Positions 22,566-48,306 of a stretch of 59,422 nt of DNA are shown one piece after another. The DNA is from Anaerolinea sp. GTDB taxonomy: Bacteria; Chloroflexota; Anaerolineae; Aggregatilineales; UBA2796. The position numbers and the translations under genes are program-made. The stretch lies in assembly GCA_014879835.1 (NCBI GenBank), contig JACSRJ010000153.1:1-59422 (forward strand), written 5' to 3'. Within the stretch, counting starts at the first letter, position 1; the number at the start of each line of letters is the position of its first letter. The notes beneath the pieces are model-generated. The model saw only the letters and a list, made by a program, of their open reading frames with translations. It had not been told where the DNA came from and did no database searches.

Positions 22566-22651
22566 GGAGGGGTGCCGGAGAGGCTGATCGGGGCGCTCTC
22601 GAAAAGCGTTGTGCAGCAATGCACCGTGGGTTCGAATCCCACCCCCTCCGC
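22566..22651 (+). tRNA. tRNA-Ser (anticodon CGA)
   Basis: Cloverleaf with GGAGGGG acceptor stem, anticodon loop CTCGAAA, long variable arm and GGTTCGAATCC T-loop. Confidence 0.8.
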
Positions 22652-23042: not shown

Positions 23043-24056
23043 TTATGAATGTACCCGCACCACCCGGTGCAGATACCCCTCCGTATCCACGATCACCAGA
23101 GTCGATTTGGCCCAAACGATGAAGAATGGACGCACCTTTGGTAAGGTGAGATCGTGCAGTTCTTCCCCTGTGATGGTAAAGGTGTCAATGGTGGTTTGAT
23201 CGGTCTCCATATCTACCAGATGGGTGATTGCCGTGAGCAGCGGCTCATCCTCATCCTCGTACCATGTGAACATCGAGGCTGTTGGCAGGTGCATCTGGGT
23301 GGTGATCTGTCCCGTTGCCACTTCCCATATCAGGCTGTAACCGCGCACATCCCCCTGATCAAGGTTAACGCTCAGATAGGCATCATCCCCACTCCACGCC
23401 AGCAGCACCACCGGATAGGGCAGGTTGGGGGCTGCTGATAAGGTCTGAACGATCTGCCCCTCGAGGGTCATGATGGAGATCAGCCCTGACGAATCTTTTT
23501 GACCGAAGGCGATCTGCCCCTGCGAAGAAACCGCCAGTGCTGAAATGGGGTTCTCCGCTTTGAGCAAAAGCTGAGGTGCAGTTTCCGCCAGATCAACGAT
23601 CCACAACGTCCCATCCCAAAGCCCAACAATGAGTATTTCGCCTTCGGGATACCACGCCATGTTAGAAAGCTGATCATCCAGTTCGACGGTGCGCAGATGC
23701 TCACCGGTTTCGGGATTCCACAGTGCCACCGATTGGCGATCCCCCACGGCCAGTAGGGCAAGGCTCGGATGCCAGTCGATCAGCCCATTACCCCACGCCT
23801 GTGCCCGCACTGGTGTAGCCAACTCACGGAGAAGCGCGCCAGTCTCCAGCGTTCTGATCTCAATCTTGTCCGCGTACCCCAGTGCGATCTGGTCACTGTC
23901 GGGGTTGATGTCGATACCCCTGACCATACCCACAAAAAAGCCCGCTTCTGGGTCTTGTGCCCGCACTTGGGATACTGGGAGCGCTCCCGATAGGATCAGC
24001 ACCAACCCCATTATCCCAAGAACAACCCGCTGAAATTTACCTACTAGACGTATCAT
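23043..24056 (-). CDS. secreted beta-propeller (WD40-like) protein
   Basis: Signal peptide. Repeated W/G-rich blade-like segments. Lies 17 nt downstream of the WXG100-toxin gene. Confidence 0.55.
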   Translation of the reverse strand: MIRLVGKFQRVVLGIMGLVLILSGALPVSQVRAQDPEAGFFVGMVRGIDINPDSDQIALGYADKIEIRTLETGALLRELATPVRAQAWGNGLIDWHPSLALLAVGDRQSVALWNPETGEHLRTVELDDQLSNMAWYPEGEILIVGLWDGTLWIVDLAETAPQLLLKAENPISALAVSSQGQIAFGQKDSSGLISIMTLEGQIVQTLSAAPNLPYPVVLLAWSGDDAYLSVNLDQGDVRGYSLIWEVATGQITTQMHLPTASMFTWYEDEDEPLLTAITHLVDMETDQTTIDTFTITGEELHDLTLPKVRPFFIVWAKSTLVIVDTEGYLHRVVRVHS

Positions 24057-24073
24057 GGTTGATCGCTGCCTTT

Positions 24074-25588
24074 TTATCGTCCGGGGTTAGGCTGAAAGCC
24101 GAGGGCTTCGCGCACGGCCGCATCGTAGGAATCCGTCACCCGGAAATTCTCTGCGCCATCGGGATAGTTGTCCTCAAAGACGGTGCCAATAATGTCATCA
24201 AACTGCCCAGCGCGCACCCGTCCCGCCGCGCTGTCCGGGAAGCCCCCAAGCAGCCCATTGGTGATCAAATCGGTGACCGGCTCATCACCGTTGTTACTGC
24301 TGCGAGGGTTATAGCTGTAACCAGTGGTATCAGTCGTGGTCAGGTCGATACCCCCCTCACCCGCGCCCGATGCATTGGTGAAATCCGTGGCCAAACCCGG
24401 GGTACGGCCCACAATCAGGTGGGAAATTTCATGCGCTAGAAGCGAATCAGAGGTGAAAGTACCCCCGACGCTGCGGTTATTCTGAGTGTTTTCAAAAAAC
24501 GCCCGATCCCCAAAAGTGAGGTTTCCATTGGGATAATCGGCCCGCCCATACCAGTAGGATTCGCGCCACTCGGTAGCCCCTTCGGGCAAGGGTTGGCGTA
24601 TGTCGTAGGTGTGTCGGTCGCCATTCGCGTCCGCGTAGCTGTACCAGACCACAGGCTCACCACCCACATCACGGCCCGCCGGGTCAATGGTGCCCTCCGG
24701 ATAGTACTGTACGTCGTTCCCGTTCATGATGTAATTGGTGTTGTCGTTACCATCACGGCGTAAGTTCACATCTCGATCTTCGAGGGCCAAGAGCAGAGGC
24801 GCATAACCTGCCTTATCCGCCGGCAGTTGATAGTAGGCCGCAAGGCGAATCAGATCGTCTTCGGTGTAGCGCTCCAGAAATTCGCTGCGGGCATTCTCGG
24901 CCATCTGGTCAACCACACCATCAATCTGACGCAGTTCTTCCAGTGACCATCCGCCCTCAACGAAGGTGCTTTGTTCAATGTTGAAGTTCAACAGATCAAG
25001 CTTGCGTAAGGTGGTAATGGCTTCCCGAAGATCAGCCGCAGTCCAAGGATTGTCCCGCAGAAGCCCATCATCCTCGCCGATATAGTTGATCAACCATGCG
25101 GCCTCCGTGGAGGTGATGCTCTCGCCAGCCGCCAGTTCGACACCCAGTTCGCGCAGGCGGTTGATCTGCTCCTCAGTGGCGGGCGGTGGAGGCTCGGCTG
25201 TGCCCTCATCTTCTGGGGCCTCTTTGGCATGTTCCTTGCCGTTACCGCCGCCACCATCAAGGGAATCGAGAAATCGTTGGAAGGCCTTAAAAAGCGCAGC
25301 GGCTTCCTCCTCCGCCGTCTGGAAAATCTGCGCGATCTGCTTAACACCATCCGCGCTAAATTGAAATGCGGCTTCGAGTTTTTCCAGTGCGGGAAAGACG
25401 CTCTCCCTCATCTCCGCGAAGAAGGTCTGCGCACCCAAACCCGTCCATGCGCCGGCTTCCAGCTCCTGAGTGCATTGGTAGACCCGGTAAGTGGCTGCGG
25501 CAGTGTGATCTGCGGCTTGTTCAAAGGCTTTGCAGATTAGCTTTAAGGCGTCGTAGTTGGCTTGTATCCTTTGCCCCATAGGATTCAT
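24074..25588 (-). CDS. WXG100-like N-terminal domain fused to a zincin-like metallopeptidase toxin domain (polymorphic toxin / putative T7SS-type effector)
   Basis: N-terminal ~100 aa helical hairpin with W-x-G (AWTGLG) resembling ESAT-6/WXG100. C-terminal HEISH (HExxH) motif. Confidence 0.65.
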   Translation of the reverse strand: MNPMGQRIQANYDALKLICKAFEQAADHTAAATYRVYQCTQELEAGAWTGLGAQTFFAEMRESVFPALEKLEAAFQFSADGVKQIAQIFQTAEEEAAALFKAFQRFLDSLDGGGGNGKEHAKEAPEDEGTAEPPPPATEEQINRLRELGVELAAGESITSTEAAWLINYIGEDDGLLRDNPWTAADLREAITTLRKLDLLNFNIEQSTFVEGGWSLEELRQIDGVVDQMAENARSEFLERYTEDDLIRLAAYYQLPADKAGYAPLLLALEDRDVNLRRDGNDNTNYIMNGNDVQYYPEGTIDPAGRDVGGEPVVWYSYADANGDRHTYDIRQPLPEGATEWRESYWYGRADYPNGNLTFGDRAFFENTQNNRSVGGTFTSDSLLAHEISHLIVGRTPGLATDFTNASGAGEGGIDLTTTDTTGYSYNPRSSNNGDEPVTDLITNGLLGGFPDSAAGRVRAGQFDDIIGTVFEDNYPDGAENFRVTDSYDAAVREALGFQPNPGR

Positions 25589-25948
25589 TCCCCTTAGTGC
25601 AGGCTTGTGAAGAACGGATTCAGCGTCTCATCTTTACCCATCGGGGGAGGGAAAAATCGAGACAAGCGTAAAATTTACCTTCTTCATATCAGATTGGCAA
25701 TGATCTCGTTTATGAACTTGAGTTCTGTCATGCATATCCCCGCCACGGGCAAGGAAGATGAGGACATAGGTTAAGGCAAATGTGATGTGTTCACTCTGCC
25801 CCGTTCAAACGCTCTCTTGTATCTCTACAAGCTATCTGCATAAAATACAGACGGTTGATATATGTGAAGCGATTTGACAAGAAACTCCACAAACTAGTTT
25901 CAGACATTATTCCTGTGCTGGGATGATGCAATTTTCATCGGAGGTCAT

Positions 25949-27436
25949 ATGATCAAGCGCACCCTCTCACATTTCAGGCTGTTCCTAGATACTCCTCGGG
26001 CTGTTGCATGGTCTTTCATTGTGGTTTTCATCGTCGTTCTGGGTGTACTTTCAACTCAGCGACACACCCTTTACAATTCAAGTGCATTTGATCTCGCATT
26101 TCACGATCATGCCTTGTGGCGCATGGCACGGGGTGATCTGCTTGCTTTTCTCAAGCCTCCTTTCACTGGTGCCGCCCATGTTGAACCGATCATGATCTTG
26201 CTTGTTCCTTTCCGGTGGCTGTTTGCCGATGTGCGCTGGTTGTTGCTTCTGCAAACTATAGCATTGGGTTTGGGAGGATGGGGAATTTACCGGATAACCT
26301 CACGAGTCTGGCCGCAAGCTCAGGCTGGAGCTCTCTTCACTGCGGTATATTTGCTGTATTTGCCCGTCGGATACATGGCGATATTCGATTTCCATCCTGT
26401 GGCATTGGCAACCCCTCTGCTCATTTTTGCGTTTGATGCCGCAGATACCCAACATTTCCGCCGTGCAACCATCTTATTGTTATTGGCTCTGATGTGCAAA
26501 GAGGAAATAGGGTTCGTTGCTGCATCCCTTGGCATATATTGGTTCTTGGTCAAGCGCTGGAAATGGGGTCTTCTCTGGGCAGTCTTTGGCTTCCTGTGGG
26601 CCGCCTTATCCTATTTCGTGATATTGCCCGGAGGGCTTAACTTAGATGCGGTTGGCACTCACAGTTACTATAGCTGGCTATTTCAGGGGGATATCCAGTC
26701 CCGAATCGATTTCTTCATTAGAATGAATCAGTTTTACTGGGACTATAAAGTACAGTGGATGACTGCAATGTTTGCTCCTCTACTTCTGCTTCCCTTTTTG
26801 AAGCCCGCTATTTTTCTGATTGCTGTCCCCACGATACTTCTTCACGCACTTTCCGCCTATCCTCTACAACTAGTGGTAGAACATCAATATATGGCCGCAG
26901 TAGTTCCCTTTACACTGATTGCCGCTGTGCATGGTGGATATCGGGCTTGGACATGGTTAAAGAAACATGTATCTAAGAATCGGCAAGTGCGTTTCCTGCG
27001 TATTGGTGCGTTTGCCATGCTTGCGATCTCGGTGAGTGTATATGTCACCAAGGGACCTCACATCTCCCAGCCTTTACAGAGCGGTGCTAACCTAAATGGG
27101 TTGGCAGCAGCCATGTCCCGAATTGATCCCGCTGGCTGTCTGATCACTGCTACAAACATCGCCCCTCATTACACGAAGATCGAGAAACTCTATCTCTTTA
27201 ATCAGGCAGGGGTTCAATGCGATATTGCCTTAGCTGACATGGGTGATGATCGCTACCCGCAGTTTGAAACCACCGGGCCTCAAGCAGCATGTCAACTTTT
27301 CGAGCAACAAAACTACCACCCAATATTCCTCCAAGATCAGGTTGTGATCTTACAACATGCTGGTGTTTTGCATGAAGGCCTGATCTCAGAAATGACTATG
27401 CTGTGCAAGCCTTATTCAGCAAAAGATAAGCGCTGA
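25949..27436 (+). CDS. DUF2079-like polytopic membrane protein (GT-C-like), low-GC gene
   Basis: About 12 TM helices. GC and codon usage are visibly lower than the surrounding genes. Confidence 0.6.
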   Translation: MIKRTLSHFRLFLDTPRAVAWSFIVVFIVVLGVLSTQRHTLYNSSAFDLAFHDHALWRMARGDLLAFLKPPFTGAAHVEPIMILLVPFRWLFADVRWLLLLQTIALGLGGWGIYRITSRVWPQAQAGALFTAVYLLYLPVGYMAIFDFHPVALATPLLIFAFDAADTQHFRRATILLLLALMCKEEIGFVAASLGIYWFLVKRWKWGLLWAVFGFLWAALSYFVILPGGLNLDAVGTHSYYSWLFQGDIQSRIDFFIRMNQFYWDYKVQWMTAMFAPLLLLPFLKPAIFLIAVPTILLHALSAYPLQLVVEHQYMAAVVPFTLIAAVHGGYRAWTWLKKHVSKNRQVRFLRIGAFAMLAISVSVYVTKGPHISQPLQSGANLNGLAAAMSRIDPAGCLITATNIAPHYTKIEKLYLFNQAGVQCDIALADMGDDRYPQFETTGPQAACQLFEQQNYHPIFLQDQVVILQHAGVLHEGLISEMTMLCKPYSAKDKR

Positions 27437-27644
27437 TGTGCGTTAGACTGGCTACTTATCGCCGTCTCCCGTTGTCAATTAGAAAGAGGAGCCAGATAAT
27501 GAGTTTATCTGCTCTATATATCAGACTCTCCCCGCCTTCGATCTTCTAGCAATTGGCATGGGGAGCGGCTATAATCAAAGAGTTCGTGATGTAAGATACA
27601 ATCACGCTCCACACTTAACCCAACACACCAGAGGGATAGTTCAC

Positions 27645-28055
27645 GTGAAACGCATTGTACCCTTATTAATCATTGCCGTGATCGGGGTGATCGTCCTAGT
27701 GACGCTCTCTACGGGGCAGGTTCCGGGCACCCGCCCCCAGACCAATAACCCCGAGGCTTCGACCCTGTATGCGACATCACAACAGGGGCTGCTTTTTTTT
27801 GTAATTGCGGGGGGACTCATCAGCGCTGTGATCGGCAATGCGGTTTTGGCTGCGCTGATCATGTGGGTACTTAACTGGCGGATCAAGCGGGCCAAAGAAC
27901 GCACAAGTTCGCCCTTCTCATTTTCCCTGAATCCCGCTAAACCCAATAGTCTGGGCGCGGTGATGGCCACACATCCCATGATCACAGTAGGGTTTGTGGT
28001 GGTACTCATCGCAGGTTTGGCACTGGTGTTGGTCGTCACTGGCGCTATCCGTTAG
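27645..28055 (+). CDS. small membrane protein (GTG start)
   Basis: Three hydrophobic helices. GAGGGA RBS 8 nt before the GTG. Confidence 0.4.
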   Translation: MKRIVPLLIIAVIGVIVLVTLSTGQVPGTRPQTNNPEASTLYATSQQGLLFFVIAGGLISAVIGNAVLAALIMWVLNWRIKRAKERTSSPFSFSLNPAKPNSLGAVMATHPMITVGFVVVLIAGLALVLVVTGAIR

Positions 28056-37293: not shown

Positions 37294-38304
37294 ATGATTG
37301 AAGCCATGACCGAACTGATCCCCTATCAAGCGCCATCCGCCGGGCTGCCTGAGCTCGAAACGGTGAATGTATATGTCGCCATGGCCGGGCTTTCGGCCCA
37401 TACGCAGCGCGCCTATCGACGCTGGATCAAGACCTACCTCAGCACGGTGAATCAGATCGATCCTCAGAGCATCAACCTGAAAGCGCTCAATGTTGAGGCT
37501 GCCAGCGCCTCGCTTGCGCCGGCCCCGCTCAAAGCATGGTTAGGACAGTTAAAAGCAAGAAGCTTGGGCAAACAGTCGATCATGCAGGCCAAAGCTTCAG
37601 TGGTCTGGTTAGCCCAGTTCATGGCTGATCTGGGTCGGGTGGAGTACTCGGTTGCCAGTGGGCTAAGTCGGGTCAAAGCCCCCCGTGCGGAATCGGGACA
37701 GCGCACGGGCACATGGCTTACCCAAGATGAAATTCGTGCCCTGATCAGTGCCGTAAGAAGCATTGATACGGGCAGTGAAGCCCTTCGCACACGCAATGTG
37801 GCCATTATTGTGCTGATGGTCACCTGTGGGCTGCGCCGTGACGAGATTGCAGCGGCCCAGTGGTGTGATCTGAGCAAACAGGGCCGTAATCAGGTGCTGC
37901 GGGTGCATGGAAAAGGCGAAAAACTGCGGGTGGTGAAGCTCCCTGAGATGACACTGCTCATGATCAATGCATGGCGCAAGTTCCACCCTCTGCCCGAAGG
38001 TGAACGTGCATTGTTCTCACGGGTGCGGCGAAATGGGGATGTGATCACCGATGGAATTACGGACCGCTCCATTTGGATCGTGGTGCAGCGGGCCGCAAAA
38101 GCCGCCGGTTTTGATCGCATTTCTCCCCATGACTTACGGCGCTCTTTCGCCAGAGGGGCCTATGAGGCAGGGGTCTCTTTTGAGTTGATTCGACAGGCGC
38201 TGGGGCACTCCAATATTGCCACGACTGAACGTTATGTGAACTCAGTGTTGGAACTAGACAAAGCGGCCACGGATATTTGGGCTGGCATCCTCGACAAGGA
38301 CTAG
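37294..38304 (+). CDS. tyrosine-type site-specific recombinase/integrase
   Basis: Catalytic R...HDLRRSFA...LGHSNIATTERY motifs (R-H-R-Y). Confidence 0.8.
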   Translation: MIEAMTELIPYQAPSAGLPELETVNVYVAMAGLSAHTQRAYRRWIKTYLSTVNQIDPQSINLKALNVEAASASLAPAPLKAWLGQLKARSLGKQSIMQAKASVVWLAQFMADLGRVEYSVASGLSRVKAPRAESGQRTGTWLTQDEIRALISAVRSIDTGSEALRTRNVAIIVLMVTCGLRRDEIAAAQWCDLSKQGRNQVLRVHGKGEKLRVVKLPEMTLLMINAWRKFHPLPEGERALFSRVRRNGDVITDGITDRSIWIVVQRAAKAAGFDRISPHDLRRSFARGAYEAGVSFELIRQALGHSNIATTERYVNSVLELDKAATDIWAGILDKD

Positions 38305-44625: not shown

Positions 44626-47600
44626 TCACTCAAGTTTGTCAAAAACCTTGTGCAGTTCCCGCGGGCGCACCTGTGAAAGCTGCGCGATCCGGTCGCTGGA
44701 TTCACGCAGGCGGCGGCTGAGGACATTGATCAGCTTCAGGGAGAGATCAGGGTATTGGCGAATCAGGGCCAGCAGGGGTTCGCGCCGCAGTTGTAGGGTC
44801 AGGGTATCCTGAATCGCAATCGCCTTCTCCGTGCGCGGGCTGTCGTCAAACATGGTCATTTCGCCGAAGTATGAGAGCGCCTCAACCGTGCCAATGCGGG
44901 CTGTGGAGCCTTTGCGTTGACCAGCGCGTTCCAGTGCTACCCGCCCCCGCACCACCACGTACATCACCCCGCCGGGATCACCTTCGTTAAAGATGACCGC
45001 ATCATTGGCAAACAGTTCTTCCTCACACACGCTGGCGAGGACTTTGAGTTGATCCACGGTCATGCCTTCAAAAAAGTGAACTTCCCGCAGGAAAATGATC
45101 TTTTCAATGGTGGATAACATGCTTCCATCCTCACTTTCAGTGACCCGAACTGCACCTGCCATCATACGGCGGGCTGCTTTGGCTGCAAGGCGTACCTCCG
45201 CGGCGCGGTCTTTGAGCGCAGGGCCGATCATGGCTTCAAGCTGCCCTTTGGTGAACAACGTCAGGCAGGGTGAATCTTTGGCAGGGGTGAAGGGCTGTAC
45301 CGCTGGTGCGGGTGATACCGCCAAAACGGGTTCTTTGTCCTCCGCTGGTTTTTCGAGGGATTTTTCGGCTGGTTTCTGGCTTGGTTTCTCACTTGGTTTC
45401 TCAGTGGACGGCTTGTCCAGCGCTCCCAAGAGATCACTGGGAGCACGGCGGGCCCGCCGTGTTTTGGGATCGGGCGGCGGTTCGGGTTTGGTGGCCTCGG
45501 TTGAGGCGGAGGACTGTAACGGGGTAGGTGACGTTTCTTCAGGTACATCTACCGCGGGTGGGTAAGCGGCCGCTCCGATCTCACCGAGGGCATAAGCGAC
45601 CACAGCACGGGCCCACGAGTCCTCGTTATCGCTGCCAAGGGTGCGCAGTACCGCCCCCGCATCCTGAGCCGTGACCCCTGAAAGCTCCTCACTGATTTCG
45701 AGGAACTGGGCCGGACTCGCTGCACGGTTAAATAGGGGCTGGAACATCCGCGCCAACTGGGGATTGAGAAAAGTTTCAAGGGCTTCTTGGGCATTGGCCC
45801 GCACCCGTTGAGAGTCACTGTTAAGCGACTCCGCGATTAAGCGCACTTCCGAAGGCGGATGAAGGGCGGAGAGTAGATAAAAAATCTCCTCCAGCAGGGA
45901 CTCGTTGCGTTCCCGCAGCACATCACGCAGCACCGCCACCCCTCGGAAGCCCACACAGGGGGTGAGGGCCTCTAAACGCACGATGTTGCCATAAATCTGT
46001 ACCAGATTGGCCCGCACATATCCCCGGATCAACTCCGCCGACTTCTCCTTGTCGATCTTGGTCAAAACCACCGTGAGCATCTTACGAAGCTGGGGATCGG
46101 TTGCCTCCGCACGGGAAAGGGCGATCAGGGTAGCCATATCGCCTGAACGCCCCAACGCCTGTACCGCCGTCTCACGGATTTCGGGGCTGGGATCGGTCAA
46201 AAAGCTGATTAAAGTGGGCTGGACACCGGGTGTATGCAGATTGCCCATGATGTTCAGGGCAGCCCGGCGGATACGCTCAACCGGATCATGCAGCAGGGTA
46301 CTGGTAAGCTGGGTGAGCAGTTCCTGTACACTTTTGCTTAACGGTTTGCCGGAGAGACTCTCAATGGCCGTGGCCGCCTCAAGGCGCACCTCGTCGTCGT
46401 TATCTCCCACATAAGGAATCAGAGACTGAATGAACCGAGGATCATTAAACTGGGCCATCAGCCGAACCGCCGAAGCCCGACGGGTTGGTGAGGGATCGGT
46501 CAGAAGCGGGGTGAGCGCCTGCATCGCCGCTGCCATATAGTAAATATCCCCAGTGCGGATTAGGATGGGGATCACTTGCAGGCGAATATCAGGCTCCGGG
46601 TCGCGCAGCAGCTCCAGCGCGAGGTTGTAGGTGTTCTCCTGTTCTGACCAGCGAGGAAGTCCGCTCACAGCCGCAAGACGCACCGCTCCGTCCGGGTCGG
46701 AGAGCATCTCGGTAAATAACCCTCGCACTTCAGCGCTCCGGTAGTCGCCTGCCACAAGGATGTTGGCAATCGCAGCGCGGGTTTGGGCGCTGCCCGCTCG
46801 GGCCATTTGCACCAGAATAGGCACCGCAGCCCGCCCGCCCACATCACTCATCAATTTAGCGATAAACACTGTTGTCTCTGGGCTGGTGCTTTCCTCTGCC
46901 TGCTTCTTGAGTCGTTCCAAGGTCTCGCCGCTGACCACCGTCAGATCTTCGGCGGGCTGAAGCACAAACGAATAGTCTTCCTGTTCCAGCATCCGCACCA
47001 GCGCCTTGGAATATTGACGACGCACAAAGATCGAGGCGATGAAATAGGCCATCCCCAGCAGCACCAAAAGCCCCGGCAGAAGCCATGGCGCATTGGGCAC
47101 CACCGGAATGAGCAAGAGCAGCCCACCACCCAACAGCGAACCAACGGGCACCAACAACCCGGTGGTAAAGGCCCGCGCCCGCCCTTTCACTTTGAGGGGT
47201 ACCGCATTGTAGAGCAGATTATCAATGGTCATGCGGAAGGAGGTTCGGAAGGTGGTGCGGTAGAAGTACGCCAGCCCCGCACTGAATAAGGCGGTAGGCA
47301 CTCCCGCCAGTGATCCCACCGTGATCAAGGTGCCCGTAGGGTAAATCATGTTGGTATTGCCCAAGCCCAACCACGCGATGATCCGTCCCATCAGGAACAA
47401 CTGCACCGGGAACATGATCAAGTTGGTGATCCCGGTCAGATTGCCTACATAGGAGGAGATCGCGGCGGTGGATTGGAGCTGAGTCTTAAGAATTTGGCTG
47501 GTCTGATAGGTGATCAGCGGCAGCAGAGTCATCAGAATCAGGGACGAAATGGCCATCCAACGCAGATAAGGCGAGTGGATCACGTAAGACCAGCCCTCGC

Positions 47601-48306
47601 GGATGTTTTCGGTGTAACCGCGCCAGCCTCGGTTCACGGGGCGTTTCGCTTCTGTCCGGGGTTTCGGGAAAGCCCCCGTCTGTCCCGAAGTGCTCAGTTC
47701 ACGTTCATCTTTGACCAAGCGAGGCATCAAGACTGCCCCCGCAGCCACCATAAGCAGAGAAGCCGCCCACAACAGCACGATGTTTTCAGGGGGCATCCAG
47801 CGGTTAAGTAAGGTCATGCTGAACCCAGCGATGATCCCCGCCACCCGCGCCCCGGTCGCAATAAAGGGCACAACACGTTTGGCCGCTTGGGTATCATAAA
47901 AACTGTTGACGTAAGTCCACCAATGAAGCACAAAGGTGTCTTTGATCACATGGGAGGCGAGGTACAAAAAGGGATAAGTGAGAATACCCACAGGGCTGCC
48001 TACCATCCCCCGACCTACCACCACCAGCACTGCGCTGATGAGCATGATCCCGATGAGCAGTTGAGCATGGGAAATGCGATCCACAAATAGGGTGTAGGCC
48101 GCAACCGCGATGATGGCGATGACCGCGTCCGCAATGAAGGTATAGGGCAGCACCCCTACCCCCACCAGTTCCAAAAAGGCAGCCTCGGCGATGGTCTCCC
48201 CCCACGTGATCCCGGTGAGAAAGATCAGCCCCATGATATAGAGCACCAGAAGGCGGGGCCACTCGCCCCGACGGATGTCAAAGAGATAACTGAAAAGTTG
48301 AAGCAT
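44626..48306 (-). CDS. 1226-aa fusion of a TLC/MFS-like nucleotide-transporter domain, HEAT repeats and a C-terminal cyclic-nucleotide-binding domain
   Basis: About 12 TM helices with TLC-like N-terminus. Multiple PBS-lyase HEAT repeats. KP-rich linker (EKPSEKPSQKPAEK). cNMP-binding FGEMTMF...RTA-like C-terminus. Confidence 0.7.
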   Translation of the reverse strand: MLQLFSYLFDIRRGEWPRLLVLYIMGLIFLTGITWGETIAEAAFLELVGVGVLPYTFIADAVIAIIAVAAYTLFVDRISHAQLLIGIMLISAVLVVVGRGMVGSPVGILTYPFLYLASHVIKDTFVLHWWTYVNSFYDTQAAKRVVPFIATGARVAGIIAGFSMTLLNRWMPPENIVLLWAASLLMVAAGAVLMPRLVKDERELSTSGQTGAFPKPRTEAKRPVNRGWRGYTENIREGWSYVIHSPYLRWMAISSLILMTLLPLITYQTSQILKTQLQSTAAISSYVGNLTGITNLIMFPVQLFLMGRIIAWLGLGNTNMIYPTGTLITVGSLAGVPTALFSAGLAYFYRTTFRTSFRMTIDNLLYNAVPLKVKGRARAFTTGLLVPVGSLLGGGLLLLIPVVPNAPWLLPGLLVLLGMAYFIASIFVRRQYSKALVRMLEQEDYSFVLQPAEDLTVVSGETLERLKKQAEESTSPETTVFIAKLMSDVGGRAAVPILVQMARAGSAQTRAAIANILVAGDYRSAEVRGLFTEMLSDPDGAVRLAAVSGLPRWSEQENTYNLALELLRDPEPDIRLQVIPILIRTGDIYYMAAAMQALTPLLTDPSPTRRASAVRLMAQFNDPRFIQSLIPYVGDNDDEVRLEAATAIESLSGKPLSKSVQELLTQLTSTLLHDPVERIRRAALNIMGNLHTPGVQPTLISFLTDPSPEIRETAVQALGRSGDMATLIALSRAEATDPQLRKMLTVVLTKIDKEKSAELIRGYVRANLVQIYGNIVRLEALTPCVGFRGVAVLRDVLRERNESLLEEIFYLLSALHPPSEVRLIAESLNSDSQRVRANAQEALETFLNPQLARMFQPLFNRAASPAQFLEISEELSGVTAQDAGAVLRTLGSDNEDSWARAVVAYALGEIGAAAYPPAVDVPEETSPTPLQSSASTEATKPEPPPDPKTRRARRAPSDLLGALDKPSTEKPSEKPSQKPAEKSLEKPAEDKEPVLAVSPAPAVQPFTPAKDSPCLTLFTKGQLEAMIGPALKDRAAEVRLAAKAARRMMAGAVRVTESEDGSMLSTIEKIIFLREVHFFEGMTVDQLKVLASVCEEELFANDAVIFNEGDPGGVMYVVVRGRVALERAGQRKGSTARIGTVEALSYFGEMTMFDDSPRTEKAIAIQDTLTLQLRREPLLALIRQYPDLSLKLINVLSRRLRESSDRIAQLSQVRPRELHKVFDKLE

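Follow-up and report, generated by a model that had tools for sequence, protein, structure and literature searches.

Two co-directional genes, designated geneA and geneB in their order of transcription, lie on the minus strand at positions 23043..25588 of a 59,422-nucleotide contig (JACSRJ010000153.1 of assembly GCA_014879835.1; the whole contig is referred to here as the window) from Anaerolinea sp., a member of the Chloroflexota. geneA encodes a WXG100 domain joined to a divergent zinc peptidase module, and geneB an exported WD40-type beta-propeller. The pair can be read as a secreted zinc peptidase accompanied by a cognate exported binder, most likely a protective inhibitor, an overall interpretation to which we would give roughly an even chance of being right. 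It is favoured because the partner is exported, because other members of the peptidase family carry SH3b heads and because the TelC-TipC system, discussed below, provides a precedent.

In the proposed mechanism, the WXG100 head would take the geneA product into a type VII-like route, driven by an FtsK/SpoIIIE ATPase encoded elsewhere in the genome. This head would be connected by a flexible Gly/Pro linker to a module of 370 amino acids (aa), consisting of a helical accessory subdomain and a gluzincin core. For this core, the predicted zinc ligands are H386, H390 and E436, the predicted catalytic base is E387, and D440 would buttress the site. The propeller would be exported by the Sec route and would meet the peptidase outside the cytoplasmic membrane, where the enzyme may cut an extracytoplasmic target, either a cell-wall peptide or a surface protein, and where the propeller may serve as the cognate binder, a protective inhibitor that confers immunity on the producer. 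A Sec-exported partner cannot protect the cytoplasm, so that, if the pairing is functional, the peptidase should meet its partner outside the membrane. Extracytoplasmic action is also indicated by the SH3b heads on other family members. We are more hesitant about a wider proposal, possible yet on the whole doubtful, that the peptidases constitute a new gluzincin family at the MEROPS level and that the WXG100-headed members are the first envelope-targeting type VII-like protease effectors in Chloroflexota, each with a Sec-exported inhibitor, a propeller in this case and, in the sister clade, a protein of an unrelated exported family.

The WXG100 head and the peptidase module of geneA

Both of the open reading frames (ORFs) reported in a first-pass annotation of the sequence were found on the minus strand, separated by 17 nt (24057..24073), a gap of equal length in the sister lineages. 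The ORF list placed geneA at 24074..25588, 504 aa from an ATG at 25588. However, the true start is probably the second ATG at 25579, giving a coding sequence of 24074..25579 and a protein of 501 aa that begins MGQRIQ, because a Shine-Dalgarno-like AAGGGG precedes this codon by 10 nt and the first ATG by only 1 nt, and because MGQRIQ is the N-terminus of every geneA orthologue. Residue numbers nevertheless follow the 504-aa frame. geneB (23043..24056) encodes 337 aa. At NCBI the geneA product is MBE2194027.1, labelled "WXG100 family type VII secretion target [Anaerolinea sp.]" by the Prokaryotic Genome Annotation Pipeline (PGAP), and the geneB product is MBE2194026.1, a "hypothetical protein".

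The WXG100 (ESAT-6-like) helical hairpin occupies aa 7-98 (25295..25570, minus strand). The NCBIfam profile TIGR03930 (WXG100_ESAT6) matched this region over its entire length (profile positions 1-90 of 90; E 7.8e-12) with a score of 45.2 bits, just above the cut-off of 44.85, while Pfam PF06013 gave 19.7 bits (E 0.0011) and did not reach its gathering score of 27.3, so that the assignment is marginal when geneA is considered alone. It was secured by the relatives. Each of the two profiles matched 8 of 26 members of the peptidase family (best E values, 4.3e-18 for TIGR03930 and 2.6e-13 for PF06013), and PF06013 scored 31.1 bits against P0002 and 39.2 bits against a 409-aa protein of contig L004, two proteins with similar heads that are described below. 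A profile of nine WXG100 N-termini (alignment A8) aligned end to end with WXG100 proteins of solved structure, namely EsxA (3zbh, 2.2e-6) and ESAT-6 (1wa8/3fav, 1e-4), as well as EsxB, SAG1039 and S. aureus EsxA. The turn motif W48-T49-G50 (25439..25447, minus strand), within the AWTGLG sequence (aa 47-52) that the first-pass annotation had singled out, has a tryptophan that is invariant in A8. These comparisons identify the N-terminus of geneA as a genuine WXG100 domain, as the annotation had supposed.

The end of the hairpin, F89-QTA-E93-EE-A96-AAL-F100 (25289..25324, minus strand), fits the pattern HxxxD/ExxhxxxH, which was put forward by Poulsen et al. (PMC3935865) as a shared recognition pattern of type VII secretion systems (T7SSs) and which would here be the export motif. 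F89QTAEEEAAALF100 was the sole match to the pattern in the first 130 aa of geneA, and the motif was found in 7 of 9 related heads. The protein has no hydrophobic segment (maximum Kyte-Doolittle 19-residue mean, 0.68) and thus lacks a Sec signal. The suggestion that geneA might be of the LXG type was not borne out, in that the LXG profile (PF04740) gave no match at E<=1 and no Lap-like or WXG100-like helper gene was nearby. A search of the 59-kb window with a family-specific WXG100 hidden Markov model detected no small helical-hairpin ORF and no second WXG100 ORF, and there was no FtsK/SpoIIIE (EccC/EssC-like) ATPase among the 13 ORFs of at least 450 aa in the window, in agreement with the first-pass annotation.

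The missing secretion machinery in the window, the borderline WXG100 score of geneA and the lack of signal peptides on the SH3b-type relatives could all be accommodated if the protein were not secreted and the WXG100-like hairpin served only to dimerise a cytoplasmic zinc peptidase. These three points count against a secreted enzyme. We consider a cytoplasmic role very improbable, however, since export is indicated both by the full-length profile match to the secreted EsxA and ESAT-6 and by the conserved export motif, exported partners encoded directly downstream would make no sense with a cytoplasmic enzyme, and WXG100 proteins together with FtsK/SpoIIIE systems have been reported for Chloroflexi.

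The head is followed by a low-complexity linker rich in Gly, Pro and Glu (aa 105-137; 25178..25276, minus strand), the fastest-evolving segment of geneA, with a ratio of nonsynonymous to synonymous substitution rates (omega) of 0.11-0.18. The peptidase module then begins with the helical accessory subdomain (aa 138-270; 24779..25177, minus strand), which is present in all family members (alignments A1 and A2) and corresponds to helices H9-138 of the modelled fragment, where the predicted local distance difference test score (pLDDT) exceeds 90. The gluzincin catalytic core (aa 271-504; 24077..24778, minus strand) comprises a beta-sheet, a HExxH helix and an ExxxD helix. The predicted zinc-binding and catalytic motif, H386-E387-I-S-H390 (24419..24433, minus strand), is the HEISH motif that had been noted as the mark of a C-terminal zincin domain, a claim strengthened by a conserved third ligand. 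This predicted ligand, E436, and a helix-capping Asp form the gluzincin ExxxD motif E436-PVT-D440 (24269..24283, minus strand) in helix H306-317 of the model, preceded by a near-invariant P-R429-S430-S motif. In 23 alignable sequences, 22-46% identical to geneA, the four invariant columns were H386, H390, E436 and D440, and E387, R429 and S430 were conserved in at least 90%. HExxH together with ExxxD constitutes, by sequence, the gluzincin signature; the thermolysin counterpart of ExxxD is NExxSD.

The AlphaFold2 model of the module, built from the family alignment, was confident (pLDDT 89.9, predicted template modelling score 0.90). In it, the helical accessory subdomain is accompanied by a mixed beta-sheet and the HExxH helix, and E436 and D440 sit on a helix farther along the chain. 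No described family accounted for this module. No Pfam family matched aa 131-504 of geneA at E<=1, no Pfam peptidase family matched any of the 26 family members at E<=0.01, and a phmmer search of PDB sequences with the module returned nothing. A profile search of PDB sequences gave a single marginal match (E 0.007) to the active-site edge strand and HExxH helix of the ColH collagenase (FT..eLiaHE..H). A Foldseek search with the model found nothing significant, with lethal factor ranked first at E 0.95. The nearest folds included the Pro-Pro endopeptidases PPEP-2 and PPEP-3. We conclude from the sequence comparisons and the model that aa 131-504 belong to no described family but constitute a divergent gluzincin family of their own, to which M34 appears to be the closest.

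Several candidate families were considered and rejected. LXG, Tox-MPTase1-5, Tox-HopH1, ATLF and the other Pfam and NCBIfam peptidase families gave no match to geneA (for Pfam, none at E<=1), and the Tox-MPTase search proposed in the first-pass annotation was equally negative across the 26 family members. The sole profile signals, NF038122 metallo_LGF (E 0.02-0.03) and a YpfJ-like family (0.033), each fell well short of the respective cut-off. As for the stretch rich in Gly, Asn and Asp (aa ~278-330), this region, which had been taken as a hallmark of zincin toxins, proved instead to be a lineage-variable insert in the beta-sheet subdomain, rich in insertions and deletions across the family.

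The family is rare, since an exhaustive phmmer search of 1.84 billion representative sequences matched only 28 proteins at E<=1e-3. No relative was detected when the GTDB species genomes were scanned with the most conserved peptide of the family, and a scan of Joint Genome Institute metagenomes yielded two fragments. A word-indexed database search returned only a 97% identical twin and one WXG100-calpain protein (P0002); a profile query of the same database returned the twin alone, which reflects a limitation of the index. Eight members are WXG100-headed, P0006-P0012 among them, whereas P0013, P0019, P0021, P0022, P0024 and P0025 carry an SH3b head, and P0028 has a glycoside-hydrolase-like region and an SH3b domain ahead of the peptidase module. 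SH3b domains typically bind cell walls. The SH3b-type relatives are stand-alone chromosomal genes located outside lysis cassettes, and they lack signal peptides. Conversely, similar WXG100 heads were found on other C-termini, a calpain-type cysteine protease in P0002 and an uncharacterised C-terminus in the 409-aa protein of L004. Across the family, then, a trafficking head is combined with interchangeable C-terminal modules, as in polymorphic toxins.

On contig L004 two WXG100-fusion genes stand in tandem, 37 nt apart, at 72-1301 (the 409-aa protein) and 1339-2838 (P0006); the family gave no other indication of a multi-effector array. A phage or defence origin of the locus was also considered and rejected; PHROGs contained no match, the one PADLOC result was a spurious repeat match for geneB, and a Foldseek search of BFVD was not significant.

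The exported partner and the conservation of the locus

The first 33 residues of the geneB product (23958..24056, minus strand) resemble a signal peptide, with the sequence MIRLVGKFQR followed by 18 hydrophobic residues and VRA|QDP. Three basic residues precede the 18-residue core, the Kyte-Doolittle 19-residue mean reaches 2.32 at aa 11-29, and V31, A33, Q34, D35 and P36 are invariant among orthologues, so the protein appears to be exported, either with a cleavable signal or N-terminally anchored. Its Pfam matches were of the WD40 type, including ANAPC4_WD40 (PF12894; 37.2 bits, gathering score 22.9) and Beta-prop_WDR19_1st (PF23389; 29.3 bits, gathering score 27). The downstream gene had indeed been described at first pass as a signal-peptide beta-propeller, and both parts of that description were supported. 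The AlphaFold2 model was all-beta, with ~23 strands and a helix at 3-22, and its low confidence (pLDDT 49.7) makes it unreliable, as only four sequences were available. No terminator-like site was found between geneA and geneB on the minus strand, and the two genes are probably co-transcribed, given that the 17-nt gap is also kept in the sister lineages.

Exported proteins are also encoded beside other WXG100-headed peptidases. The genes of P0007, P0009 and P0010 are followed directly, after 7, 24 and 61 nt, by genes (L005 2845-3483, L101 8961-9701 and L099 2006-3589) for proteins of 212, 246 and 527 aa, respectively. These three partners show mutual homology (pairwise BLASTP E values from 2e-7 to 3e-9), have signal-like or lipoprotein-like N-termini and consist of one to several repeats with the shared motif F-x-F-[ST]-A-x-x-x-[DN]-G-E-x-V-x-A-R-G-A. 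No Pfam entry matched this family, and it bore no resemblance to geneB. An exported protein gene thus follows the WXG100-peptidase gene within 7-61 nt in four clades, the proteins being drawn from two unrelated families; on the short contigs of P0006 and P0008 no such partner was seen. Signal-bearing propellers near P0010 and P0011 were considered as relatives of geneB and rejected on hhalign probabilities of 15% and 5%.

The strain contigs L001-L003 are nearly identical (nucleotide identity 97-98%), and two more distant lineages, L091 and L093/L094, were also compared. The order ctaB, ctaA, p136, geneA, 17-nt gap, geneB, rpsT, tadA, DUF2142 was kept in all of these. geneA was 94% and 91% identical in the two distant lineages, with omega values of 0.085 and 0.062 at synonymous divergences (dS) of 0.36 and 0.75, and all four of its segments, the WXG100 domain included, were under purifying selection. 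geneB was 79% and 74% identical, with omega values of 0.23 and 0.18, and the neighbouring genes had values of 0.00 to 0.17. The purifying selection (omega 0.06-0.23) identifies both geneA and geneB as real genes. The same C-terminus was found in four lineages at 91-97% identity, with an omega of 0.05-0.08 for the core; nothing was present between geneB and rpsT, and there were neither orphan modules nor any replacement of the C-terminus.

The question arises whether the two genes belong together at all. If geneA encoded an effector that needs no partner, geneB might encode an exported WD40 protein that has nothing to do with geneA and shares its transcription unit by chance. WD40 proteins are common in the phylum, as the generic WD40 matches returned by the search illustrate, the propellers near other family members were not specifically geneB-like, and geneB evolves 3-4 times faster than geneA; each of these observations detracts from a cognate pair. 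Mere proximity is nonetheless quite improbable in our view, because the spacing of 17 nt and the gene order have persisted in each of the three sister lineages at dS values as high as 0.75-0.84, and because the sister-clade peptidases likewise have an exported protein gene 7-61 nt downstream.

A more serious difficulty is presented by the stability of the locus, which by these comparisons is conserved rather than polymorphic and so differs from a classical polymorphic toxin cassette. The polymorphic-toxin, T7SS-effector architecture proposed at first pass consequently survives only in part. The modular heads and C-termini agree with it, but there was no polymorphism at the strain level (omega 0.06-0.09). 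A secreted exoprotease with a physiological, non-antagonistic function, comparable to the PPEPs, has to be considered, which might act on the surface or sheath proteins of the producer, on its cell wall or in nutrient release, with the propeller as substrate, anchor or cofactor. Several observations speak for such an enzyme and against a toxin with its inhibitor: 1) conservation is strong, the housekeeping synteny is stable over three lineages and polymorphism is lacking, 2) geneA is more conserved than neighbours of unassigned function, 3) the geneB partner is not conserved across the peptidase family and the partner families differ between clades, and 4) most of the metallopeptidase toxin families in PMC3482391 are listed without an immunity protein. 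The occurrence of PPEP-2/3 among the nearest folds also fits, in that Pro-Pro endopeptidases trim surface adhesins. Against these stand the exported partner gene that recurs directly downstream in two clades, a classic toxin-immunity layout, the swapped heads and C-termini that are typical of conflict systems, and a very rare and patchy distribution that is unlike a housekeeping function. On this evidence a physiological exoprotease seems to us somewhat unlikely, yet a genuine contender.

The distribution bears on the same issue. The geneA/geneB pair was absent beside ctaB in 80 of 80 other Anaerolineae ctaB loci examined; those loci also lack the rpsT/tadA adjacency and are thus uninformative on the history of insertion. 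The pair is, as far as the surveyed sequences indicate, narrowly distributed, with orthologues conserved within a narrow clade and a family that is extremely rare. The first-pass annotation had named a housekeeping peptidase with conserved orthologues as the contrary case; the orthologues are indeed conserved within their clade, but the rarity of the family and the absence of the pair from the 80 loci do not fit a housekeeping enzyme.

Surroundings of the locus and other genes in the window

A candidate sigma-70-like promoter, TTGCCA-17-TAAATT, was located upstream of geneA at 25672..25700 on the minus strand, a single match and no more than expected by chance alone. It lies within a block that is identical in L001 and L091 and that ends at the point of insertion of a DUF2079 segment. 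Measured upstream from the geneA start, this segment of ~1.8 kb (25717..27542) is 138 nt away, just past the conserved promoter-like block, and contains a DUF2079 membrane-protein gene (25949..27436, plus strand; Pfam 1.2e-42). Its G+C content is ~0.49 compared with ~0.56 in the surroundings, and it is missing in all three sister lineages, where the distance from geneA to the p136 gene is 118-360 nt. The segment is thus a lineage-specific insertion; no flanking repeats were found.

The locus has housekeeping surroundings. It is bordered by ctaA and ctaB in one direction and by a DUF2142/PMT_2 glycosyltransferase gene, tadA, tRNA-Ser and rpsT in the other. The tRNA gene flanked by tadA and rpsT is tRNA-Ser(CGA) (22566..22651, plus strand), at a distance of ~390 nt from the geneB end. 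Only in this clade does the tadA-tRNA-rpsT block adjoin ctaAB; in 80 other Anaerolineae genomes it does not. The identity of ctaB to that of any GTDB species representative does not exceed 78%, the best matches all being metagenome-assembled genomes of Anaerolineae, from Aggregatilineales or Phototrophicaceae. The p136 gene (27645..28055, plus strand), directly upstream of ctaA, encodes a small hydrophobic protein of 136 aa that has no Pfam match and is 96-99% identical in the sister lineages; a counterpart upstream of ctaA can be detected in ~15 other Anaerolineae loci. Haem A synthesis or cytochrome oxidase assembly may involve this protein as an uncharacterised partner.

Other genes were recorded farther away in the window. 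In an ORF of 598 aa (49300..51096, plus strand) the matches were to domains of the Major Vault Protein (MVP_shoulder, 2.7e-25; Vault_3, 5e-14; Vault repeat, 1e-7), and a vault-protein-like gene is thus present in a Chloroflexota genome. A protein of 1226 aa (44626..48306, minus strand) contains many HEAT repeats and a C-terminal cyclic-nucleotide-binding domain. A ParA/MinD-like ATPase gene (48343..49104, minus strand) is situated directly upstream of it, and a gene for a response regulator-GAF-adenylate/guanylate cyclase (53739..55376, plus strand) lies near these two genes. A tyrosine recombinase gene (Phage_integrase family, 2.4e-25; 37294..38304, plus strand) overlaps the start of a methyltransferase gene.

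Comparison with known systems

The overall design, a WXG100 head followed by a metallopeptidase, is of an already known kind, since WXG-headed metallopeptidase toxins have been catalogued and PGAP already labels geneA as a WXG100 protein. Zhang et al. 2012 (PMC3482391) described WXG-headed polymorphic toxins with Tox-HopH1, Tox-MPTase1 and Tox-MPTase4 C-termini and listed T7SS-type export for Firmicutes, Actinobacteria and Chloroflexi. Like geneA, these toxins have a WXG100 trafficking domain, a linker and a C-terminal HExxH peptidase. geneA differs in that its peptidase belongs to another family, its module is larger (370 aa, with accessory helices), RHS repeats are absent and its locus is conserved.

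Lethal factor and PPEP-1/2/3 (MEROPS M34, ATLF-like) appear to be the closest in fold; nevertheless, no sequence-profile match to geneA was found, the identity is ~7-9% and the Foldseek E value was, as noted, not significant. In addition, geneA has a WXG100 head where lethal factor and the PPEPs have a domain that binds protective antigen or a Sec signal, and it has PRSS ahead of the Glu helix. The combination of a lethal factor/PPEP-like fold with a WXG100 head appears to be new because PMC3482391 lists the lethal-factor-like metallopeptidases with export by Photorhabdus virulence cassettes and the type II secretion system only, and not with T7SS export. The clostridial collagenases ColH and ColG (MEROPS M9) are also gluzincins, as predicted for geneA.

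Within the phylum, WXG100-calpain fusions were noted in Herpetosiphon aurantiacus (Chloroflexi) by Rawlings 2015 and were interpreted as T7SS toxins by a reviewer of that paper (PMC4631099). The heads of P0002 and the Herpetosiphon fusions resemble that of geneA (34% identity) and have the same AExxAAALF end; however, the calpain fusions carry a cysteine protease (Peptidase_C2) and geneA a zinc peptidase. In the TelC-TipC pair of the Streptococcus intermedius T7SSb, the toxin acts outside the membrane, on its outer face or on the cell wall, and the immunity protein faces outward (PMC10765036), a logic that is matched by the exported geneB product. The components are otherwise different. TelC is a lipid II phosphatase with an LXG domain and depends on Lap partner genes, while geneA has a WXG100 head, a peptidase and a propeller partner, with no adjacent Lap-like or WXG100 genes.

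Studies of type VII secretion have been confined to Actinomycetota and Bacillota. The evidence for Chloroflexota consists of bioinformatic hints only, and in a recent survey of T7SS variants the term "Chloroflex" does not occur (PMC11217815). A conserved and clearly functional WXG100-peptidase with an exported partner is therefore a concrete candidate substrate with which to test type VII-like export in an abundant, poorly cultured phylum. The peptidase module lies outside Pfam and NCBIfam, its fold is predicted with confidence, and the catalytic residues lend themselves to direct mutation. If the full proposal of a new gluzincin family, type VII-like effectors and paired inhibitors is correct, it would provide a direct experimental handle on whether Anaerolineae possess a functioning T7SS and on the use to which it is put. 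Should the partners be inhibitors, the propeller and a second new family would join the few known extracytoplasmic T7SS immunity proteins; otherwise the two genes would amount to no more than a secreted protease operon specific to the lineage. Relative to the known systems, then, what is new is the peptidase family itself, the predicted lethal factor/PPEP-like fold on a WXG100 head, the exported partners and a degree of locus conservation that resembles that of core genes.

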